Under the pieces are notes generated by a model. The model searched no databases and was not told the origin of the DNA. It worked only from the letters and a program-made list of their open reading frames with translations. Source: a bacterium (GTDB lineage: Bacteria; Arandabacterota; Arandabacteria; Arandabacterales; JALGWA01). Taken from it: a stretch of 64,000 nucleotides of DNA. The stretch's first letter is position 1, and each line of letters opens with the position of its first letter. The position numbers and the translations under genes were made by a program. Of this stretch, positions 3,301-44,721 are shown one piece after another. The stretch covers positions 69 to 64,068 of the forward strand of contig JASFEA010000002.1 in the NCBI GenBank assembly GCA_050125095.1. Reading direction: 5' to 3'.

Positions 3301-6300
3301 GAAGTTCGCCGTCATTGTCCTTGTCCTCTGTGTGAAGCACGTCGGCCAGCCAGGGGCGGTAGAAGTCCTCGCTTACCGATCCCAGGTCGACGTTCATGGT
3401 CGCCGTTCCGTCGCCGGACTTCTGCCTGATCCAAACCTCCAGGAACTTGAGCCGGGAATAGTCGGCCCCGGCGCGGGAAATGAGCCTCATGAGGCCGCTC
3501 CACTGCTGGGCCGGGTCCGCCGAACCGCCCTCCGGGTACTTGAAGCCCTTGATGTCCATCTCGAGCACCGGGATAAAGGCCTCCCCGGGCCTCGACTCGG
3601 CGTCCGGGAATATGTCCTCCTGCGTAACCTCGCGGTCCTTGAGGTACCACCACATGCCCCTGTTGTCCGGCCAGTCGTAATTGGTGGGCGGGCTCGCAGG
3701 CACCCACGATTCCCTGGTCATGGAGTAGCTCCGGGTCTCGCTCACGCCTTCCATGTCATCGACATAGACGTCGTCCTTGGTATTGGGATTGGGGAAGCTC
3801 GCGGCGATCTCGCCCGATATGTCGAGCTTGGACGGCTCGTTGGCCCGCACGATGGGAAGCGCATTCATCATGGATGTCATCAAGTAGGGCCGCCAGCCGA
3901 ACTGGGCATTGAGATCGCCCATGAGAAGGCTACTGGGCTCCTGGCCGAGGCGCGGCCGCTCTTCGGGTGACTTCCTGCTCTGATACAGCCAAACCGTGGC
4001 CACATGCGACCTGTCCGCCAGGGAGTAGACCCCCTGCAGGCCCCCCAGGAACTCCTGGGCGAAAGAGATAAGCGGAACGTATTCGTAGTCTATGGTGATC
4101 TTGGCGTTGGGATCGGCCGCCTCCTCCGTCTTGAACCTTATCTGGCCTATATCGTAGTAGATGTCGTAGTCGGTTCCCCTGACGAGGCGCCTTCCGTCGA
4201 TCATCACCACCTCGCTGCCCTGGAGGATATTCATTCGGCCCAGGTTGAAGGTCGCCTGGGGAGTGGAGTAGCGGACTACCATGTAGTACTTCTGATGGCT
4301 CTTGATATCCTGGGAGAGCTCCCTGTAATGCGTGTTGTAGATGACGGGGTTCTGATCCTCCAGGTCCGCCGGCCTCGTCCCGGCAGGATAAGTCCCGGGG
4401 GCAAAAGGCTGGAGGTCCGGGAATTCGAGAAGACCGATGTCGCCGTATATCCTGCCCGGGTCGACGTAGTCATCAGTGGCCCACCCGTTTGCCTCCGTGG
4501 CCGGATTGGCTTCTTCGTCATAGAGGTCGAGTCCCATGATCTTGCGATACTGGTACTGGCCCTGCAGGTTATCGCCCCCCGTTCCCGCCTCTATCCTGTA
4601 AATCTCCGCCTCCACGCCCTGCTCGGAAACGAAACTCGCCCGCAGCGAATAAACGTTCTTCCTCTCCAGCCTGATGGTCTGCTGCCAGTACTCGGTGTCC
4701 GCCTGGTAGTCGTTGTAGGGCAGGCGTATCATCTTGAGTATGAGCCTGTTCTCCTCGTCCAACCCTCCCACCTGCTCGGTAGTCTCGCCGTTGCTGTACA
4801 CATACGCAACGGCCAGCGTATGCTCTTCGCTCAGGGCGCGCGTCAGGTCGAGGCCCCCCGTGAGGTCGTTGAGGGCATAGTCGCGGTTTCTCTCGAGAAG
4901 GCTGAACTTGCCCGGATACGTAAAGCCCTTCTCGGCCCATTCCAGGCTGTCCAGCGGCGCGGCGTTCACAAAGGGGTATGCGTCAATGACGCCCTCTCCT
5001 TCGTTGTTGGTGCCGATGCCGTCGTCAAGGTAAACCTGCACGTCGACTATCGTGTAGCCTTGCTTGATGTCTTCCGGATTGATGATGAAGAAGAAGCGGT
5101 CCCTGAGGAAGTCGGTGTCGTAGAGAACCACGGAGTCCTTCTTGGCCGCGCCCTCGAAGCGCGACGAGGCCGTCTGGCCCTCCTGCTTGCTCATGATGGC
5201 CGTGAAGTCCACCGGCCCCATCTTGCCGACCATCTTGGCCCCGAAGAGACCCTGATGCTGGCCGCTGTAGCTCACGAATTGCGAGCCGGGAATCGAAAGG
5301 TTGGTATTGCCCATCTCGACGCTCTGGACTATCTCATCGTCATAGCCCTCGTACCTCAGCTTGATCCTGTTCTCGAGCGGGGTCTGTACCTCGCTGTCAT
5401 GATGAACGCCGACATGTATCTTCTCGCCCACTGTGCCGTTGAGGTCTATCTTGAGGTGCTGCTTCATGTCGAGCTGGGGGAACTTGGACTTGGAGCCCCT
5501 CTCGGTGAGTTTTTCGTCCACTATATAGCTCGACTGGCCGCCGAAGGTTATCTGCTCGCTTCCCGACACGCTGAGATTGGCGCCCTGGCCGATCACGCGG
5601 CCTATTGTGTCGGGGAACTTGATCGGGATATCGATCTCGCTGAAGTCAGAGAGACTGCGCTCCTCGGCCTCGTATGTTCTCCGAGAAGCGTGGTCGAGCC
5701 AGATTTCGTCTATTGCCGCGTCGAAGTCGTACTCGATATCGGGATCTTCCCGGAACTCAGGGGGCCTGAACCGAATATGCGTCTTGGGACGGTACGACTT
5801 GAGGGTGAGAGTGTACCCGTACCTGGCGCTGCGGTCCTCGCTCACGGCCCTGGGCGGGCCCATGATCTCCCCACCCGGCGGAAGCGCCTCAGCCGCGCCG
5901 GTGGGGGCAGCGGCCGGGGGCGGGGCTTCATCGGGGCCCGGCTCTCTGTCGCCTTCAGCGCCTGCGCGCTCCCGCCCGGCCTCGCCGGGAGCCGGCGGGC
6001 CCTCGGGTACCTCGGGGCCGGTGTATGGAACGCCGGGAGAGACCGCCCTTTTCCCTTCCTCCCCGGCGCCCTCGGGCGCCTCCTCACCTCCGGGAGGCGT
6101 CACGTCGGCGTCGCCGGCGCGCTCTTCCTCGCGCTTCGCGCCGGGCGCGCTCCCGGAATCCGCTGGTTCGGCCTCCCCCGCGTCCTCGGCTTCCCCTTCC
6201 TCTCTCTCTTCGTGCCTGGCCTCCGCACCCAGGACGGGAGGGCCCATTATCTCGGCGTCGCCCACCGCCGTGCTGTCCCCGGGCTCCACTGCGGGCTCCG

Positions 6301-6382
6301 TCGCAGGCTTCTCCTGCGACCGGACCGCCAGGCCCGTCCCAATGAGAACCAGAACGATGCTTATGCCTATCAGGGCTTTCAT
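344..6382 (-). CDS. sprA: giant outer-membrane beta-barrel protein, SprA-like (candidate T9SS translocon)
   Basis: 2012-aa ORF. It has an N-terminal signal peptide (MKALIGISIVLVLIGTGLA), then a ~320-aa Glu/Pro/Ala/Gly-rich acidic low-complexity region, then ~1650 aa of alternating-polarity strands rich in S/T/N/Y/G that end in a C-terminal aromatic residue (..VLIKF). Its size and architecture fit the SprA family (TIGR04189-like). T9SS cargo and PorV-like genes elsewhere in the window make a T9SS translocon plausible. No search was possible. Confidence 0.5.
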   Translation of the reverse strand: MKALIGISIVLVLIGTGLAVRSQEKPATEPAVEPGDSTAVGDAEIMGPPVLGAEARHEEREEGEAEDAGEAEPADSGSAPGAKREEERAGDADVTPPGGEEAPEGAGEEGKRAVSPGVPYTGPEVPEGPPAPGEAGRERAGAEGDREPGPDEAPPPAAAPTGAAEALPPGGEIMGPPRAVSEDRSARYGYTLTLKSYRPKTHIRFRPPEFREDPDIEYDFDAAIDEIWLDHASRRTYEAEERSLSDFSEIDIPIKFPDTIGRVIGQGANLSVSGSEQITFGGQSSYIVDEKLTERGSKSKFPQLDMKQHLKIDLNGTVGEKIHVGVHHDSEVQTPLENRIKLRYEGYDDEIVQSVEMGNTNLSIPGSQFVSYSGQHQGLFGAKMVGKMGPVDFTAIMSKQEGQTASSRFEGAAKKDSVVLYDTDFLRDRFFFIINPEDIKQGYTIVDVQVYLDDGIGTNNEGEGVIDAYPFVNAAPLDSLEWAEKGFTYPGKFSLLERNRDYALNDLTGGLDLTRALSEEHTLAVAYVYSNGETTEQVGGLDEENRLILKMIRLPYNDYQADTEYWQQTIRLERKNVYSLRASFVSEQGVEAEIYRIEAGTGGDNLQGQYQYRKIMGLDLYDEEANPATEANGWATDDYVDPGRIYGDIGLLEFPDLQPFAPGTYPAGTRPADLEDQNPVIYNTHYRELSQDIKSHQKYYMVVRYSTPQATFNLGRMNILQGSEVVMIDGRRLVRGTDYDIYYDIGQIRFKTEEAADPNAKITIDYEYVPLISFAQEFLGGLQGVYSLADRSHVATVWLYQSRKSPEERPRLGQEPSSLLMGDLNAQFGWRPYLMTSMMNALPIVRANEPSKLDISGEIAASFPNPNTKDDVYVDDMEGVSETRSYSMTRESWVPASPPTNYDWPDNRGMWWYLKDREVTQEDIFPDAESRPGEAFIPVLEMDIKGFKYPEGGSADPAQQWSGLMRLISRAGADYSRLKFLEVWIRQKSGDGTATMNVDLGSVSEDFYRPWLADVLHTEDKDNDGELLDTENTGLDGVFTGTEGDDPDDDYFFDDNVTGAERYAHINGYEEDPSRIPQTEDLSGDGNLDVTNTHFRFSFDISEDSPYFTKRSNDWYNFRVPLEVADSLGGSPNWISTRYIRFFLTNIDSADVFQMAYLQVVGTSWLEEGLRDAVTMEWVPPAAGELYGLATKNTTDDPDYNPPYDPGKDPDGFSKREQSLVFRYIDLQPGNMGPAYRTMASPEDYTTYQTLSYYVHGDLASADQDIYHYTRFGADSVNFYEYAVKVEPGWQTVEISFDDITNLKLEDADSVTIYGVEKVPVRKVAVGGGWMAVYGEPSITRIARITGGVMNLGGAPADGEVWFDDIRLTDVRREPGYASRVSMGASFSDVLTLSADVKRTDTEFTTRGAKRKGSDDTNVTLSASTKVDRFLPDIGISLPLNARYTKARSVPTLKSKSDIALEEDQRRAESTTRESESYSLNISRPAKSRNLFMKLTMDLMNVNVSMSRKRDRTPEFADTNITYNGNFNYSLRPWWKHSLTLFKGYAVAFMPDVMDLKVYGSVNDTKKVNLRKGVVTTDKYTRVIKSDINIGVKPLTGRALDTDYSFKMTRDLDTNKNVAIPQSIGLGQEIQRSQRYLTRITPTVGRWLRPTFAYDGDYAEDSGPTVREGGDPPGVRRVSSSSRASVDFIVSPEGMFKMPAPGDTVGISWLKRTVSRLPDINMSYLLDRKSRYYKLTERPDLAYQFGFTVYVPEELNYSLSSTAQRRDEITRRDGLNVSTDFRPFQALNVSVKYKNDKTRQERSGGTTYKETSTWPDVSANVSSAFYSALFGGALTNSSLNFGYKTTTNLDGENESSITREDNTTDFVPLVGWDATWKNGVRTTFNIRHSSGESNTFLAAASRKTTKTTSVNISVKHSFSAPQGISFAGRTLRFKSNLSLSMDVTYETKLNRTPEANITDLHTSRFSLIPKLSYSFSKSITGSANARFEQISNKKLNETRRTIGVNVSVLIKF

Positions 6383-6474
6383 GGTCGCAAACTTCCCCAG
6401 TAGATATACTCCCGCACTGAATTACGGCAAGTTCCATGCCAGGCGGACCCCGGCGGCCCACATCCGTAAATGCC

Positions 6475-6484
6475 TGTATATAAT
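6475..6484 (+). promoter_or_regulatory. AT-rich -10-like element TGTATATAAT in the divergent sprA/lptF intergenic region (candidate lptFG promoter)
   Basis: A perfect TATAAT at 6479..6484 preceded by TGTA, which stands out in an otherwise GC-rich genome. It lies ~80 nt upstream of the lptF ATG at 6564. The -35 is weak (cccaca). Confidence 0.3.
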
Positions 6485-6563
6485 GGGCTTGCCCTCGGGG
6501 TCCATCTGGTGTAACTTGGCGTGGGGCCTGTTCATGTCCCTCTGGGGGACGCTTCTGTACAAA

Positions 6564-7901
6564 ATGAGAACACTTAGCCGATACATTCTCGGACAGCAGA
6601 TCGCGCCGTTTCTCTTCGGCATCTTCATCATCATGTTCATCCTGATCCTGGACTTCCTCTACAAGAACCTGGAGGTTCTGATAGGCAAGGGCGTCCCCAT
6701 AATGGTATCCATCGAGCTGCTCGTCCTCAGCATGGGCTGGATGATCGTCATGGCCATCCCCATGGCAGTCCTCATAGCCACGCTCATATCATTCATGCGC
6801 ATGTCATCGGACAATGAGGTCGTCGCGATGAAGACAGGGGGCATGAGCCTCCTCGCCATCGCCCGGCCCGTACTTGTCGCCGGCACAGTGCTCTCTTTCC
6901 TGATGATCCCGGTGCATAACTTCGTCGTCCCCGAGACCAATCACATGCTCGCCAATCTGCTCGTCTCCATCCACAGGAAAAAGCCGGCCCTGCAGCTCAG
7001 AGACGGCGTGTTCATGAACGACATAAAGGGATACAGCATACTCGTCGACAAGTCCAGAGGTCGTGACATAGAGGGCGTGACAATCTCCAAGCTCGAAGAG
7101 GGCAGGCCGGCCCAGACCATCAGGGCCGACCGCGGCGAGATATACTTCTCCGACGACGAAAACACGCTGGTGTTGAAGCTCTACGACGGCGAGATTCACG
7201 ACGTGGACGAGAGAGACCCCAAGAGATATCTCCGTCTGAGCTTCACGGAACACACAATGTACATCCCCGAAGCGGGGACGCAGCTCATCCGGCTGGAGAG
7301 GGAGCACCGGGGCGAGAGAGAAATGAGCATCACCGACCTCAGGGCCGAGATGGAGAAGGTCGAGGGCAAGATCGGCCAGGAGGCCGCGAAGGCGGATAAG
7401 ATAATCCGCGAGGCCGCCGAGGACCTCGAGGTATTCTACATCACCAGGACTTCGGAGACCGACAGCCGGGAGAGGACGGTATCGAAGGCGGCGACTTCGG
7501 TCATCTCATCGACCGAGGACAGGCTCTCCAGCGTCAGGCACCAGATAAACTCCCACAGGCGGCGACTCCGGTCGCTCTCGGTGGAGGTGCACAAGAAAGT
7601 GGCGCTTTCGTTCGCCTGCCTCGTATTCGTGTTCATAGGGGTTTCCATCGGGGTGCGCGCCAGGGAGGCCAGCGCCGGCGCGGGCATGATGATCAGCATT
7701 CTGTTCTTCGCGGTCTATTACGCCTTTCTGAAAGTCGGCGAGAACCTGGCCGACCGGGGTCTCATGCCGCCGGTGCTGTCAATGTGGGCCGCCAATATAG
7801 TGCTCGGCGCCGTGGGCCTGTGGCTTTTCATTCGAGCCGGCAGGGAACTCCCGTTCATACCCTTGGGCCTCCGGCGCGGCAGGAAGGCGGAGCGCCGGTG
7901 A
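6564..7901 (+). CDS. lptF: LPS export ABC permease, LptF/LptG (YjgP/YjgQ) family
   Basis: Translation MRTLSRYILGQQIAPFLFGIFIIMFILILDF... has the typical YjgP/YjgQ N-terminus and TM segments plus a central periplasmic beta-jellyroll-like insert. It is the first of two tandem paralogs. I moved the start to the ATG at 6564; the ORF-track start at 5577 is an antisense extension into sprA. Confidence 0.75.
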   Translation: MRTLSRYILGQQIAPFLFGIFIIMFILILDFLYKNLEVLIGKGVPIMVSIELLVLSMGWMIVMAIPMAVLIATLISFMRMSSDNEVVAMKTGGMSLLAIARPVLVAGTVLSFLMIPVHNFVVPETNHMLANLLVSIHRKKPALQLRDGVFMNDIKGYSILVDKSRGRDIEGVTISKLEEGRPAQTIRADRGEIYFSDDENTLVLKLYDGEIHDVDERDPKRYLRLSFTEHTMYIPEAGTQLIRLEREHRGEREMSITDLRAEMEKVEGKIGQEAAKADKIIREAAEDLEVFYITRTSETDSRERTVSKAATSVISSTEDRLSSVRHQINSHRRRLRSLSVEVHKKVALSFACLVFVFIGVSIGVRAREASAGAGMMISILFFAVYYAFLKVGENLADRGLMPPVLSMWAANIVLGAVGLWLFIRAGRELPFIPLGLRRGRKAERR

Positions 7902-8980
7902 AGATACTGGACAGGTACTCCATTCGCGAGTTCACGAAGACCACACTCATCGCCCTCTTCGCCTTCATCACCATCTTCATAACTCTCGACGTAGTGGAGT
8001 ATGTCGATGACTTCATCGACAACGACGTCGCCGTCCCCACGGTGATTAAATTCTACGCTTTTCAGATACCTCACATCTTCATCCTCTCGGTCCCGGTGGC
8101 CATTCTGATATCGGCCCTGCTCACTGTTGGACAGATGGCCAGGCACAACGAGCTCACGGCCATGAAGGCGTCGGGTATAAGGCTGTCCCGGGCGGTGCTT
8201 CCCCTGATCGTGGTCGGGGTCATCGCCAGTTTCATCTCGCTTGCCGTGGGGGAGATAATAATGCCGCGCACCGACACGGAGGTGATGCGCATCAAGACAA
8301 GCGATATCAAGAAGACGGGGGGCAGTCAGCCCCGCATTCAAAGAAACATCTCCTATCGCGGCAAGAACGGCCTATTCTACTTCGCCCCCGAGTACGATAC
8401 GCGCCGGCATGTCATGAAAGAAGTCGTCATCGAGAAATGGGACGAAAGCCTTGTATTCAGGATCAACGCCAGCAAGGCGACCTGGGTGGACTCGGTATGG
8501 GTGCTGACCGAAGCCTGGGTGAGGTGGTTCGACCGCGAAGGAGAGGTCGAGCGGGAGGATTACATCGAGGAGGACTCCTTCGGCGGGATCAGCGACTATC
8601 CGCGGGACATAAGCAAGGAACAGAAGGACCCCGAGGAGATGAGTTACTGGGAGCTCAAAACCCTTATCTCGCGCATAGAGGAGAGCGGCGCCGACGCCAC
8701 CAGGTACCATGTGGGGCTGCACATGAAGATAGCCTTTCCCTTCACCAATGTAATAGTGATCCTCCTGGGCGCGCCGCTCTCGGCAAGGCTCAGGCGGGGT
8801 GGCATAGCAGTGGGGGCGGGGCTGGGGCTGGGGCTGTGCTTCGTATACTACGGTTTCATACGCGTCGGCCAGGCCCTGGGCGACCACGGAGTGCTCGCCC
8901 CCATGCCGGCGGCCTGGATAGGCAACGTCCTCTTCGCCGTCGCCGGCATCATCCTTCTATTCCGGGCCGAAAGACACTAA
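7898..8980 (+). CDS. lptG: LPS export ABC permease, LptF/LptG (YjgP/YjgQ) family, second paralog
   Basis: VKILDRYSIREFTKTTLIALFAFITIF... is the conserved permease N-terminus. The GTG start at 7898 overlaps the lptF stop (GTGA). The ORF-track N-terminal extension (MGRQYSARRRG...) lies inside lptF and is rejected. Confidence 0.7.
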   Translation: MKILDRYSIREFTKTTLIALFAFITIFITLDVVEYVDDFIDNDVAVPTVIKFYAFQIPHIFILSVPVAILISALLTVGQMARHNELTAMKASGIRLSRAVLPLIVVGVIASFISLAVGEIIMPRTDTEVMRIKTSDIKKTGGSQPRIQRNISYRGKNGLFYFAPEYDTRRHVMKEVVIEKWDESLVFRINASKATWVDSVWVLTEAWVRWFDREGEVEREDYIEEDSFGGISDYPRDISKEQKDPEEMSYWELKTLISRIEESGADATRYHVGLHMKIAFPFTNVIVILLGAPLSARLRRGGIAVGAGLGLGLCFVYYGFIRVGQALGDHGVLAPMPAAWIGNVLFAVAGIILLFRAERH

Positions 8981-8987
8981 AAAAGCA

Positions 8988-9176
8988 GGGGTCAGGTCTT
9001 GAAATGCACAACACCCTCGGCGCGTTCGCGAAGGCGTTCCGCCGAGGCTTCGTGTTGTAAAGAAGCCAGCGGTGGAATGCCGATTAATCCGCAGGAGGTC
9101 GGCCAGTGTGCATTTCAAGACCTGACCCCTTAAACGCTTGAGGTCGGCCAGTGTGCATTTCAAGACCTGACCCCTC
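8988..9176. repeat. structured intergenic repeat element, copy 1
   Basis: Left arm GGGGTCAGGTCTTGAAATGCACA (8988..9010). A conserved ~95-nt core follows (…CCTCGGCG[cgttcgcgaaggcgttc]CGCCGAGG, GGCTTC[gtgttgtaaa]GAAGCC, GCGG…CCGC hairpins). The right arm TGTGCATTTCAAGACCTGACCCC is at 9107..9129 and repeats directly at 9152..9174 as part of a 37-nt direct repeat (9094..9130 and 9140..9176). The element fills the convergent lptG/ahcY intergenic region. A second copy sits at 43549..43725. Confidence 0.8.
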
Positions 9177-9181
9177 AAATG

Positions 9182-11594
<2,413 letters not shown>

Positions 11595-43465: not shown

Positions 43466-43548
43466 TGCACTTCATATCTACCATAATCGGCAGCGCAGGA
43501 CAACAGCGGATTTCGCCCGGGAAGGTTACAAGCAAGGGGTCAGGGGAA

Positions 43549-43725
43549 GGGGTCAGGTCTGAAAATGCACATTGTGCATAAGGAAGGGGTCAGGTCTTGG
43601 TTGCACAATACCCTCGACGCGAATGCGAAGGCGTTCCGCCGAGGCTCCGTGTTGTAAAGAAGCCACCGGCGGAATGCCGAGCAAACCGCAGGGCCGGCCA
43701 TTGTGCAACCAAGACCTGACCCCCA
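43549..43725. repeat. structured intergenic repeat element, copy 2
   Basis: Mini-palindrome GGGGTCAGGTCTGAAAATGCACATTGTGCAT (43549..43579). Left arm GGGGTCAGGTCTTGGTTGCACAAT (43587..43610), a core ~90% identical to copy 1, and right arm ATTGTGCAACCAAGACCTGACCCCC (43700..43725). The arm interior differs from copy 1 (GGTTGCACAAT vs AAATGCACA) but stays complementary to its own partner. Confidence 0.8.
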
Positions 43726-43734
43726 GGAGAGAAA

Positions 43735-44721
43735 CTACCATCTCAATCTCATGGAGATCCTGTGGACGCCGCTGAAGACGCCGAACTCGGTATAAGCGTA
43801 GTCGACGGCGGTGGCGCCGAAGGACGTGTCCAGCTTGACGCCGGCGCCGCCTGATATGCCCATTTCCTCCGCGTTGGTGGTATAGCCCATCCTCACGAAC
43901 ACGGTGTTGTTCCAGCCGTATTCGCCGCCGAGGTGAACCCGCTCGGAGTAATCGGTAGGATGGGTGGCGTCCAGGGCCATGGTGAGCACGCTGTTCTGGC
44001 CGAATTCCCAATCGTAGGCAATGCCCAGCCGGAAGTTGAGGGGCAGGTCATTGCTCCCGAACATGCGCACTTCCTCTATATGCGATGTGCCTATGTAGTA
44101 CTTGTCTGTATACGACCCGTCGTAAACGAGGTCCGGGCCGAAGTTGGTGGTCGCCATCGCCAGCCTGAGCGAGTTAAATCCGGTGTGGTATACCGTGCCG
44201 AAGTCAAAGGCGACTCCCCTGGCGCTGTAGTCGTAGATCGACTGGTCGATGTATTTGAACGTTCCCCCGACATAGAGCATGTCGGTCCACCTCTTGGCGT
44301 ATGTGAAACCGACGGCTATGTCCCGGGCCGTGAAGGTGCCGGAGGCCTCAGTGGAGGAGTGCTCGCTCACCAGCTGCATTTCGCCGTAATCGGCCGTAAG
44401 AACGCTGAACGCGAAAGTGCCGAGCTCTTTGTACTTGAAAGCATAGGCACCGCCTATGAGCCTGACGTCAGCCAGCCATTCGGCATCGCTCACGAAGACT
44501 TCATCCCCGTCCAGGCCCGCCAGCCCGGCCGGGTTGCTGAACACCGAGGGCGCGCCCCAGACGCTGGCAGCATAGGCCTCGCCCATGGCCACTCCCCTCG
44601 AATCTATGCCTATCTTAAGAAACAGGGCGCTGGAACTTCCCACCTTGTCAACGGCCGCTGACGCAGTGCCGGCGCCCGCGAGCAGGGCACATATAGCGGC
44701 CAGCGCGATCGTCTTCCTCAT
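43735..44721 (-). CDS. FadL-fold outer-membrane beta-barrel, PorV/PorP-like (T9SS-associated candidate), module 1
   Basis: 328 aa. Signal peptide, N-terminal motif KVGSSSALFLKIGIDSRGVAMGEAYAA…SNPAGLA (shared by FadL/PorV-type barrels), and a C-terminal aromatic residue (…RLRW). It is a paralog of 59138..60115 and sits directly downstream of a T9SS-CTD protein. Confidence 0.5.
   Translation of the reverse strand: MRKTIALAAICALLAGAGTASAAVDKVGSSSALFLKIGIDSRGVAMGEAYAASVWGAPSVFSNPAGLAGLDGDEVFVSDAEWLADVRLIGGAYAFKYKELGTFAFSVLTADYGEMQLVSEHSSTEASGTFTARDIAVGFTYAKRWTDMLYVGGTFKYIDQSIYDYSARGVAFDFGTVYHTGFNSLRLAMATTNFGPDLVYDGSYTDKYYIGTSHIEEVRMFGSNDLPLNFRLGIAYDWEFGQNSVLTMALDATHPTDYSERVHLGGEYGWNNTVFVRMGYTTNAEEMGISGGAGVKLDTSFGATAVDYAYTEFGVFSGVHRISMRLRW

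Follow-up and report, generated by a model that had tools for sequence, protein, structure and literature searches.

Two intergenic hairpin elements in an Arandabacterota genome are probably terminal-inverted-repeat dimers of the TIRYT/TIRtron type

When two copies of a non-coding repeat differ from each other in their terminal arms, while the arms of each copy remain complementary to one another, the question arises whether an RNA structure is being preserved or whether a piece of mobile DNA maintains its own symmetry. Such a pair is found in a stretch of 64,000 nucleotides from a bacterium of the phylum Arandabacterota (the window; assembly GCA_050125095.1, contig JASFEA010000002.1, positions 69 to 64,068). 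An initial annotation of the window had put forward, as the primary explanation, a novel structured RNA whose long-range stem is kept by selection, and had given as alternative a palindromic unit, i.e. a REP-like (repetitive extragenic palindrome) sequence or miniature inverted-repeat transposable element (MITE), whose arms are homogenised within each copy. The alternative turned out to be essentially right and the family can be named: the copies are very probably non-coding dimers of terminal inverted repeats (TIRs) of the TIRYT/TIRtron type, that is, REPIN-like non-autonomous DNA elements. They belong to this family by their tip, their arrangement and the gene associated with them; mobilisation in trans by a TIRYT that acts on single-stranded hairpin DNA is inferred.

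The window holds two elements of about 140 nt, copy 1 at 8988-9129 and copy 2 at 43586-43723, and the presence of two copies at the locations reported initially was thereby confirmed in the sequence. Besides the arms of the two dimers there are a solo arm and an extra right arm, which gives the order left-right-right at copy 1 and left-left-right at copy 2. At up to 2 mismatches the tip 14-mer GGGGTCAGGTCTTG occurs six times in the window, against 0.65 occurrences expected, and none of 100 shuffles reaches six. The proposed conserved core is there as well (88% identity across 91 nt), and in both copies its main inner stem is GGCGTTCCGCCG...CGGTGGAATGCC around GGCTTC/GAAGCC, laid out in copy 1 as GGCGTTCCGCCG-A-GGCTTC, loop, GAAGCC..CGGTGGAATGCC; of the inner hairpins suggested earlier the GGCTTC/GAAGCC pairing thus stands and the CCTCGGCG/CGCCGAGG pairing does not. 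The observation that had drawn attention to the locus also holds: the arms are perfect over 24 nt in each copy, the inner arm is of type TTGAAATGCACA in copy 1 and of type TTGGTTGCACAAT in copy 2, and each difference is mirrored on the partner arm. Both elements fold with much greater stability than shuffled sequences do, whichever strand is taken (z = -10 to -13).

The arrangement is by no means restricted to the window. With one genome taken per bacterial and archaeal species, a search for the pattern GGGGTCAGGTC N95-125 GACCTGACCCC yielded at least 120 stretches with facing tips, where by our own calculation chance would give about 1 at equal base frequencies and up to about 9 in GC-rich sequence. 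The hosts include Acidobacteriota, Thermoanaerobaculia, Vicinamibacterales, Aminicenantes, Planctomycetota, Actinomycetota, Methylomirabilota, Gemmatimonadaceae, Verrucomicrobiales, Thermodesulfobacteriota, Synergistaceae, Elusimicrobia and many Burkholderiales (Massilia, Duganella, Pseudoduganella, Rhodoferax). The only sequence common to all 137 elements extracted is the tip, GGGGTCAGGTC(T); some 12 nt inward of it there is a loose, lineage-dependent consensus, TTGAATTnnGACA, and the cores are unrelated between lineages, that of the window being conserved within its own lineage only. Further copies of the window's own core, for which the initial annotation had recommended a search, are present at about 12 other sites among the metagenome loci fetched by arm pattern. 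Across 75 isolated dimers the variation at arm positions 13-24 amounts to 1.1-1.9 bits, and at these positions the left arm is the reverse complement of the right one in 72-96% of the dimers, compared with 30-57% when the pairings are shuffled (median perfect arm, 19 nt). Because the arms agree to this extent, a difference between copies combined with complementarity within each copy is to be viewed as a property of the whole family rather than as a peculiarity of the two window copies. The family is essentially chromosomal. A phage origin was considered and rejected, 2.9 million viral contigs having given one dimer only (L254 1871-1992, an IMG/VR contig).

The same tip leads to a transposase. 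In 14 of the 240 loci fetched it borders a gene encoding Y1_Tnp together with a helix-turn-helix (HTH) domain. For instance, tips at 5235 and 6615 of locus L094 enclose an open reading frame of 348 aa (5575-6621) that matches Pfam Y1_Tnp (E = 8e-10) and the NCBIfam model for the REP-associated tyrosine transposase (RAYT), and weakly the DnaA C-terminal domain; a homologue with 44% identity in locus L054 is arm-flanked too. A second scan, of metagenome contigs for the arm type of the window (GGGGTCAGGTCT N4-5 TGCACA), gave at least 120 loci; by profile search at least 12 of 120 contain transposase homologues, and in the ten that show both tip and gene start, about 70-80 nt separate the tip from the start codon downstream of it. 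Complete transposase units measure about 1 kb (L144 115-1077; L182 244-1301). N-terminally the proteins carry a Y1_Tnp domain, in which the HUH motif (NHYHL) and a conserved tyrosine region (ARYIxLNPVRA) are present, followed by a C-terminal HTH of the type HTH_28, HTH_23 or HTH_38, and they score 80-83 bits with NCBIfam REP_Tyr_transpos at a cut-off of 80. All genes found between tips are Y1_Tnp genes and none encodes a DDE transposase. In the search for solved structures a single transposase sequence matched nothing, and a profile of eight transposases (L144, L199, L054, L229, L094, L220, L219, L182) matched five solved chains at E up to 0.1; no structure was found for the catalytic domain by profile, the matches being weak ones to the C-terminal HTH (YlxM-like, 8e-4; DnaA domain IV, 0.04).

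Genes of this kind have a name. RAYT-like genes flanked by long TIRs were termed TIRYT and the complete units TIRtrons (Di Nocera, De Gregorio & Rocco 2013, BMC Genomics 14:522; PMC3733652), and the label 'novel' can therefore not be upheld, since elements of this kind were described in 2013. According to that paper and a later classification (Quentin et al. 2018, BMC Genomics 19:475; PMC6006769), many TIRYT TIRs share the sequence GGGGWSAS (PMC3733652; PMC6006769), TIRYT repeats form moderately abundant families as singles, dimers or groups/clusters (PMC3733652), and the TIRYT proteins constitute TnpA-Y1 subclass 2.1, with a C-terminus that resembles Bac_DnaA_C, HTH_23 or HTH_28 (PMC6006769). 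The elements studied here share these characteristics: all arms in the window start with GGGGTCAG, which fits GGGGWSAS, single repeats, dimers and clusters are all found, the product of the flanked gene is a RAYT-like Y1/HUH protein that ends in an HTH or DnaA-C-like domain, and the family is present in Acidobacteria as well as in many further phyla. They differ in that the sub-family of the window has a conserved hairpin core of about 90 nt between its repeats, and in that the invariant 12-nt tip and the in-place flipping described below go unmentioned in the parts of the texts of PMC3733652 and PMC6006769 that were accessible. Full-text searches of the literature with GGGGTCAGGTC and with its complement gave hits to unrelated primers and eukaryotic sequences only.

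The borders of the elements tell how they insert. A direct target-site duplication of at least 4 nt is absent from all 89 isolated dimers, at k = 2-3 the counts are near the shuffled expectation, and neither copy in the window is flanked by a duplication. Transposition of IS200/IS605 elements produces no target duplication, and its absence here thus fits Y1/HUH transposition and speaks against a MITE of the DDE or Tn3 type.

The gene context reported initially is borne out by domain matches. Copy 1 lies between the convergent genes lptG (+; LptF_LptG) and ahcY (-; AdoHcyase), and copy 2 between a gene for a PorV/PorQ-family barrel protein (-) and an operon with Fer4, CCG and Pyr_redox domains (-; hdrC operon); both elements are placed exactly between the stop codons of convergent or tandem genes. 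LptG led to relatives in which the synteny of lptF-lptG facing ahcY-metK is kept and the spacer between lptG and ahcY can be followed. It is 201 nt long in the window and also in a 99% relative, with the same element and few substitutions, and 159 nt in 86% relatives, where the site is taken by a member of the same family with a shorter core; in an 80% relative (L246) the two stop codons are 5 nt apart, that is, the site is empty. In one 86% relative (L243 4075-4110) the lptG stop codon overlaps the tip, and the 16-nt sequence AAACACTAGGGGTCAG stands twice in tandem, spanning the gene end and a partial tip.

At the porV-hdrC site an identical strain (L121) matches the window. In the strains with PorV variant P0227, the flanks of which are 97.8% identical to those of the window, the arms are identical and the 90-nt core is reverse-complemented. 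This flipped core is present in three independent assemblies (L127, 1078-1170; L251, 2200-2340; L252), and L121, L253 and an 80% relative (L249) have the core in the orientation of the window. Because the orientation of the window is shared by L253 and L249 and the other one is found in three assemblies, the flip is a derived event of a single lineage and no assembly artefact. In a 91% relative (L247, 1798-1829) all that is left is a coreless 32-nt hairpin, GGGGTCAGGTCTTGAAGTGCAGACCTGACCCC, whose tips almost adjoin; an element can therefore be retained at the site without its core. In L248, an 84% relative, the element has decayed to a remnant, and L249 has a full element with different but perfectly matched arms of 29 nt. 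Flipped, deleted and decayed cores at one site support turnover at the level of the DNA. The copies land between genes, stay there for long and then change in place: the core is inverted between the arms or is lost, arms are duplicated, and the copy decays.

The arms take part in this turnover. Among the fetched loci the arm type of copy 2, TTGGTTGCACAAT, was seen at one locus only (the window, L121, L127 and L253), against about 40 loci for the common type TTGAAATGCACA; because it is confined to one locus, it must be a private variant that arose in place, on both arms. This also disposes, for copy 2, of two arm sub-families that each have their own transposase. At the orthologous site the arms have changed on both sides (TTGGTTGCACAAT/ATTGTGCAACCAA in the window vs TTAAAATGCACATTCGG/CCGAATGTGCATTTTAA in L249), in line with the earlier proposal that complementarity is actively maintained, to which the inner hairpin adds a modest covariation (see below). 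Complementarity is not absolute: several copies with the same core have 1-3 arm mismatches at positions 13-16. Since the core has been flipped between them at the same locus, the arms interact physically, and the gene-conversion-like process that had been suggested earlier is made plausible by this in-place flip between strains.

Taken together, these data suggest the following course of events. A head-to-head pair of the TIRs that border TIRYT genes, a 'dimer' that here encloses a hairpin-forming core of about 90 nt, would be folded as a long hairpin on single-stranded DNA; a TIRYT encoded elsewhere in the genome would recognise its tip and arm, and would cut and rejoin the strand without target duplication, as one would expect from IS200/IS605 and RAYT enzymes. 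Once the copy is in place, an exchange from arm to arm (by recombination, gene conversion or hairpin-templated repair) could mirror a mutation onto the partner arm, and it is probably because of such exchange that arms differ between copies and yet match within each. The simplest account of the private variant would accordingly be one complex mutation in one arm that was copied to the other; selection for a foldable substrate may add to the homogenisation of the arms. Transcription through the element would produce an RNA with a very stable hairpin, and this might, as a side effect, influence 3'-end stability or read-through without there being a dedicated RNA gene.

Several observations weigh against an explanation in terms of TIRYT-mobilised dimers. 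Neither tblastn nor a profile search revealed a TIRYT gene in the 64-kb window, no TIRYT with the arm type TTGAAATGCACA was present among the fetched loci, and a cognate TIRYT in the host of the window is therefore assumed; moreover, an experimental demonstration of TIRYT activity was not found in the literature searched. Relatives down to 80-86% protein identity still have an element at both sites, so that these copies give no evidence of recent transposition, and their long retention could mean that they are of use to the host. The inner hairpin of the core has 6 pairs changed on both sides, against 2.6 in shuffles, and a covariation score of 0.116, against 0.088, that is reached by 1 of 500 shuffles; a single-stranded structure with a function of its own would fit such compensatory change as well. 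Finally, the bases just outside the tips are mutually reverse-complementary in 21 of the 89 dimers at k = 3, in 16 at k = 4, in 10 at k = 5 and in 5 at k = 6, where about 1.4, 0.35, 0.09 and 0.02 are expected. The sequence of these inverted flanks is locus-specific (e.g. L037 3775-3910, L041 7461-7599, L088 1169-1306), and they count as evidence to the contrary because simple cut-and-paste transposition does not predict them; they could stem from insertion into pre-existing hairpins or from outward growth of the palindrome.

The latter possibility can be extended to a more general, and at present rather unlikely, proposal, namely that TIRYT dimers are self-homogenising palindromes, in which flip-flop or fold-back keeps the symmetry, inverts the core and extends the palindrome into the flanks. 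The 12-nt tip, unchanged across phyla, would then be the recognition and cleavage site of the transposase, and hairpin-templated synthesis or recombination between arms would give rise to inverted, instead of direct, 'target duplications'. We arrive at this proposal because inverted flanks occur above chance, because the private arm variant is mirrored and because strains that are nearly identical have the core in opposite orientations. If true, self-homogenisation would be a mode of maintenance or propagation for bacterial Y1 transposons that, to our knowledge, has not been described.

The structured RNA of the initial annotation, i.e. a non-coding or cis-regulatory RNA of which the stem and inner hairpins are kept by selection on the transcript, draws on the same stability of folding (z about -10 to -13), on the arms changed on both sides between the window and L249, on the retention of an element downstream of the same genes in relatives, and on the inner hairpin, in which 95% of the cells are paired and the 6 doubly changed pairs are located. 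The covariation analysis that had been suggested earlier thus did give a signal for this hairpin, albeit a modest one, in a test in which related sequences can exceed shuffles; it fits a folding constraint on a single strand, and does not tell DNA from RNA. Other observations make an RNA as primary explanation improbable. The same tips flank a transposase gene; the core stands in opposite orientations next to the same genes at porV-hdrC, in strains with 97.8% identical flanks, and the two window copies have opposite sense relative to their upstream genes; the 91% relative makes do with a coreless 32-nt hairpin and the 80% relative has no element between lptG and ahcY; and across phyla it is the 12-nt tip alone that is shared, the cores being unrelated. 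An Rfam search, also proposed initially, gave no match in Rfam 15 at the gathering threshold for the whole window, nor at E up to 1 around either copy, and at the elements we found neither a promoter-like site nor a T-run after the large hairpin. A strand-specific structure, suggested by G-U pairs in the inner stem, was rejected likewise: folding energies show no consistent strand preference, and the core flips.

A related possibility is that the elements are used by the host in the manner of REP/BIME sequences, as protein-binding site, transcription barrier or 3'-end stabiliser, and are retained for that benefit. The exact placement between stop codons is in keeping with such a role, as are the occupied sites at 80-86% protein identity and the tip-to-tip hairpin that stays after loss of the core; the TIRYT paper states that REPs are reported mainly downstream of coding regions and mentions hypotheses on a part in termination and mRNA stabilisation (PMC3733652). 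Nevertheless, the lptG/ahcY site is empty in L246 and the element at porV is decayed in L248. The elements do not have the form of an intrinsic terminator, a candidate that we rejected for the lack of a T-run after the large hairpin: the terminator scan picked up small internal stems only, one at copy 1 (near the shuffled mean of 0.5) and three around copy 2. Host use is compatible with TIR dimers as a secondary role and does not constitute a true alternative origin, and as the explanation of these elements it is hardly probable. Least of all do we favour a MITE derived from a DDE-type insertion sequence (IS) or Tn3-family transposon and moved by double-strand cut-and-paste or replicative transposition, which is very improbable indeed. 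The inverted terminal repeats of about 24 nt, the lack of coding capacity and the intergenic location would all suit it. Tn3-family elements make 5-bp target duplications and have ends of about 38 nt that start with GGGG and contain an internal TAAG; the GGGG start recalls Tn3 ends, but the arms here are about 24 nt and not 38 nt long and are without the TAAG. In addition, none of the 89 dimers has a direct duplication at k >= 4, and where the same tips were found to enclose a gene, it encodes a Y1/HUH transposase.

As TIR dimers the elements can be placed among the known families of bacterial repeats. REPINs are said to be mobilised by RAYTs, as is attributed to Bertels & Rainey 2011, Nunvar et al. 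2010 and Ton-Hoang et al. 2012. With them the window elements have in common an inverted-repeat doublet that forms a hairpin, a non-autonomous and intergenic nature, the tie to a single-copy IS200-related Y1 transposase and the long persistence at orthologous sites. In contrast to REPINs, their arms start with GGGGTCAGGTCT and are devoid of the GTAG tag, and the single arm has no internal palindrome; the transposases have an extra HTH domain and barely reach the NCBIfam RAYT cut-off (80-83 vs 80 bits), and E. coli TnpA-REP is not one of the five solved chains matched by their profile at E up to 0.1. MITEs of DDE-type IS (Correia/NEMIS, ERIC, RUP and the Tn3-derived TIMEs) are likewise short and non-coding, with inverted ends that form a long hairpin, and are frequently found at gene 3' ends and co-transcribed, but here there is no target-site duplication and the parent gene is of the Y1/HUH and not of the DDE type. 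With IS200/IS605 and their non-autonomous derivatives, the PATEs, the elements share the Y1/HUH transposase, the lack of target duplication and, probably, a single-stranded DNA substrate; the ends of IS200/IS605 are asymmetric subterminal hairpins without TIRs, whereas here the ends are inverted copies of each other.

The features of the window copies are collected in Table 1, in which the coordinates of arms, repeats and inverted segments are window positions on the forward strand.

Table 1. Repeat features at the two loci of the window
Feature	Position	Strand	Remarks
Copy 1, left arm	8987..9010	+	24 nt; 100% complementary to 9107-9130 and to 9152-9175
Copy 1, parts of the left arm		+	conserved 12-nt tip GGGGTCAGGTCT at 8988-8999; variable inner arm TGAAATGCACA
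Copy 1, core	9011..9106	+	conserved inner hairpin at 9033-9081; 88% identical to the core of copy 2
Copy 1, right arm	9107..9130	+	inner arm TGTGCATTTCA, then tip AGACCTGACCCC at 9118-9129
Copy 1, duplicated right-end unit	9135..9179	+	45 nt; repeats 9090-9134 with 93% identity; holds the second right arm (9152-9175)
Partial extra tip GGGGTCAGGGG	43536..43546	+	inside a 13-nt stretch that close strains are without
Solo left arm, common type (GGGGTCAGGTCT GAAAATGCACA), then short inverted segment TTGTGCAT	43549..43579	+	
Copy 2, left arm	43586..43609	+	24 nt; tip at 43586-43597; inner arm TGGTTGCACAAT, a private variant; 100% complementary to 43700-43723
Copy 2, core	43610..43699	+	inner hairpin at 43630-43678; inverted in place in close strains
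Copy 2, right arm	43700..43723	+	24 nt; ATTGTGCAACCA, then tip AGACCTGACCCC at 43712-43723

In the case of copy 1, the 37-nt duplication of the right arm reported initially proved to be the exact run within the 45-nt direct repeat; the duplicated right end extends the copy to 9174, and it is present in a 99% relative (L242) and absent from an 86% relative (L243). The sequences that follow the two right tips, TTAAACGC and TCAAATGC (9130-9140, 9175-9185), look like degenerate inner-left-arm sequence. In the case of copy 2, the extent given before, 43549..43725, has to be divided: the element is present, but 43586-43723 is the element proper and the first part, 43549-43579, is a separate solo arm. 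What had been noted as a collapsed mini-hairpin upstream of the copy is this solo left arm with a short fold-back; it has 2 mismatches to the tip 14-mer and is 89% complementary to the right arms of copy 1. The 13 nt around the partial tip upstream of it are missing in L127. As to the neighbouring genes, the barrel gene (window 43735-44721) encodes a protein of the PorV/PorQ family (type IX secretion; NCBI MGD9140919.1 and MGD9400734.1), and the closest named relatives of LptG (window 7898-8980), at about 60% identity, are from Candidatus Eisenbacteria metagenome-assembled genomes, by which the host would probably be an uncultured bacterium close to that phylum.

Such supernumerary arms are common elsewhere in the family, where arms are frequently nested or in tandem, with orders such as L L R R and L L L R R R (L, left; R, right) at regular spacing and with tandem units of 19 nt. 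Extreme arrays consist of five tandem 19-nt units of GGGGTCAGGTCACAGGTTT or of L L L R R R at 28-nt spacing (L098 15-150; L062 4687-4849; L074 1859-2055). In the sub-family of the window the right tip is often directly followed by sequence that resembles the inner left arm, ...TGTGCATTTCAAGACCTGACCCC-CAAAATGCACA (L210 5300-5650, L195 ~3221, L232 ~5180), and at such a junction the tip would lie within a small hairpin's loop. In one case (L210 5300-5650, the same as L179 2395-2700) a junction of this type joins two complete units that stand in tandem. Several metagenome contigs end inside or just after an element (JGI sample 3300042731, 8128 nt; L250; L252), and for that reason the elements seem to break metagenome assemblies of this lineage, which matters for binning and synteny analyses.

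For annotation the value of these findings is mainly negative, in that such very stable, recurrent hairpins between genes call for the label of TIRYT-type repeat instead of that of candidate small RNA or riboswitch; a simple pattern, GGGGTCAGGTCT facing its own reverse complement, picks the elements out in many phyla. The elements of the window represent a known but little-studied kind of bacterial mobile DNA, a genomic parasite or passenger. TIRYTs have so far been described by sequence comparison only, and the 12-nt tip offers a sharply defined candidate recognition site for binding and cleavage assays. The series of loci in the relatives, in which the element is full, flipped, coreless, decayed or absent, provides a natural time-course of one resident element.

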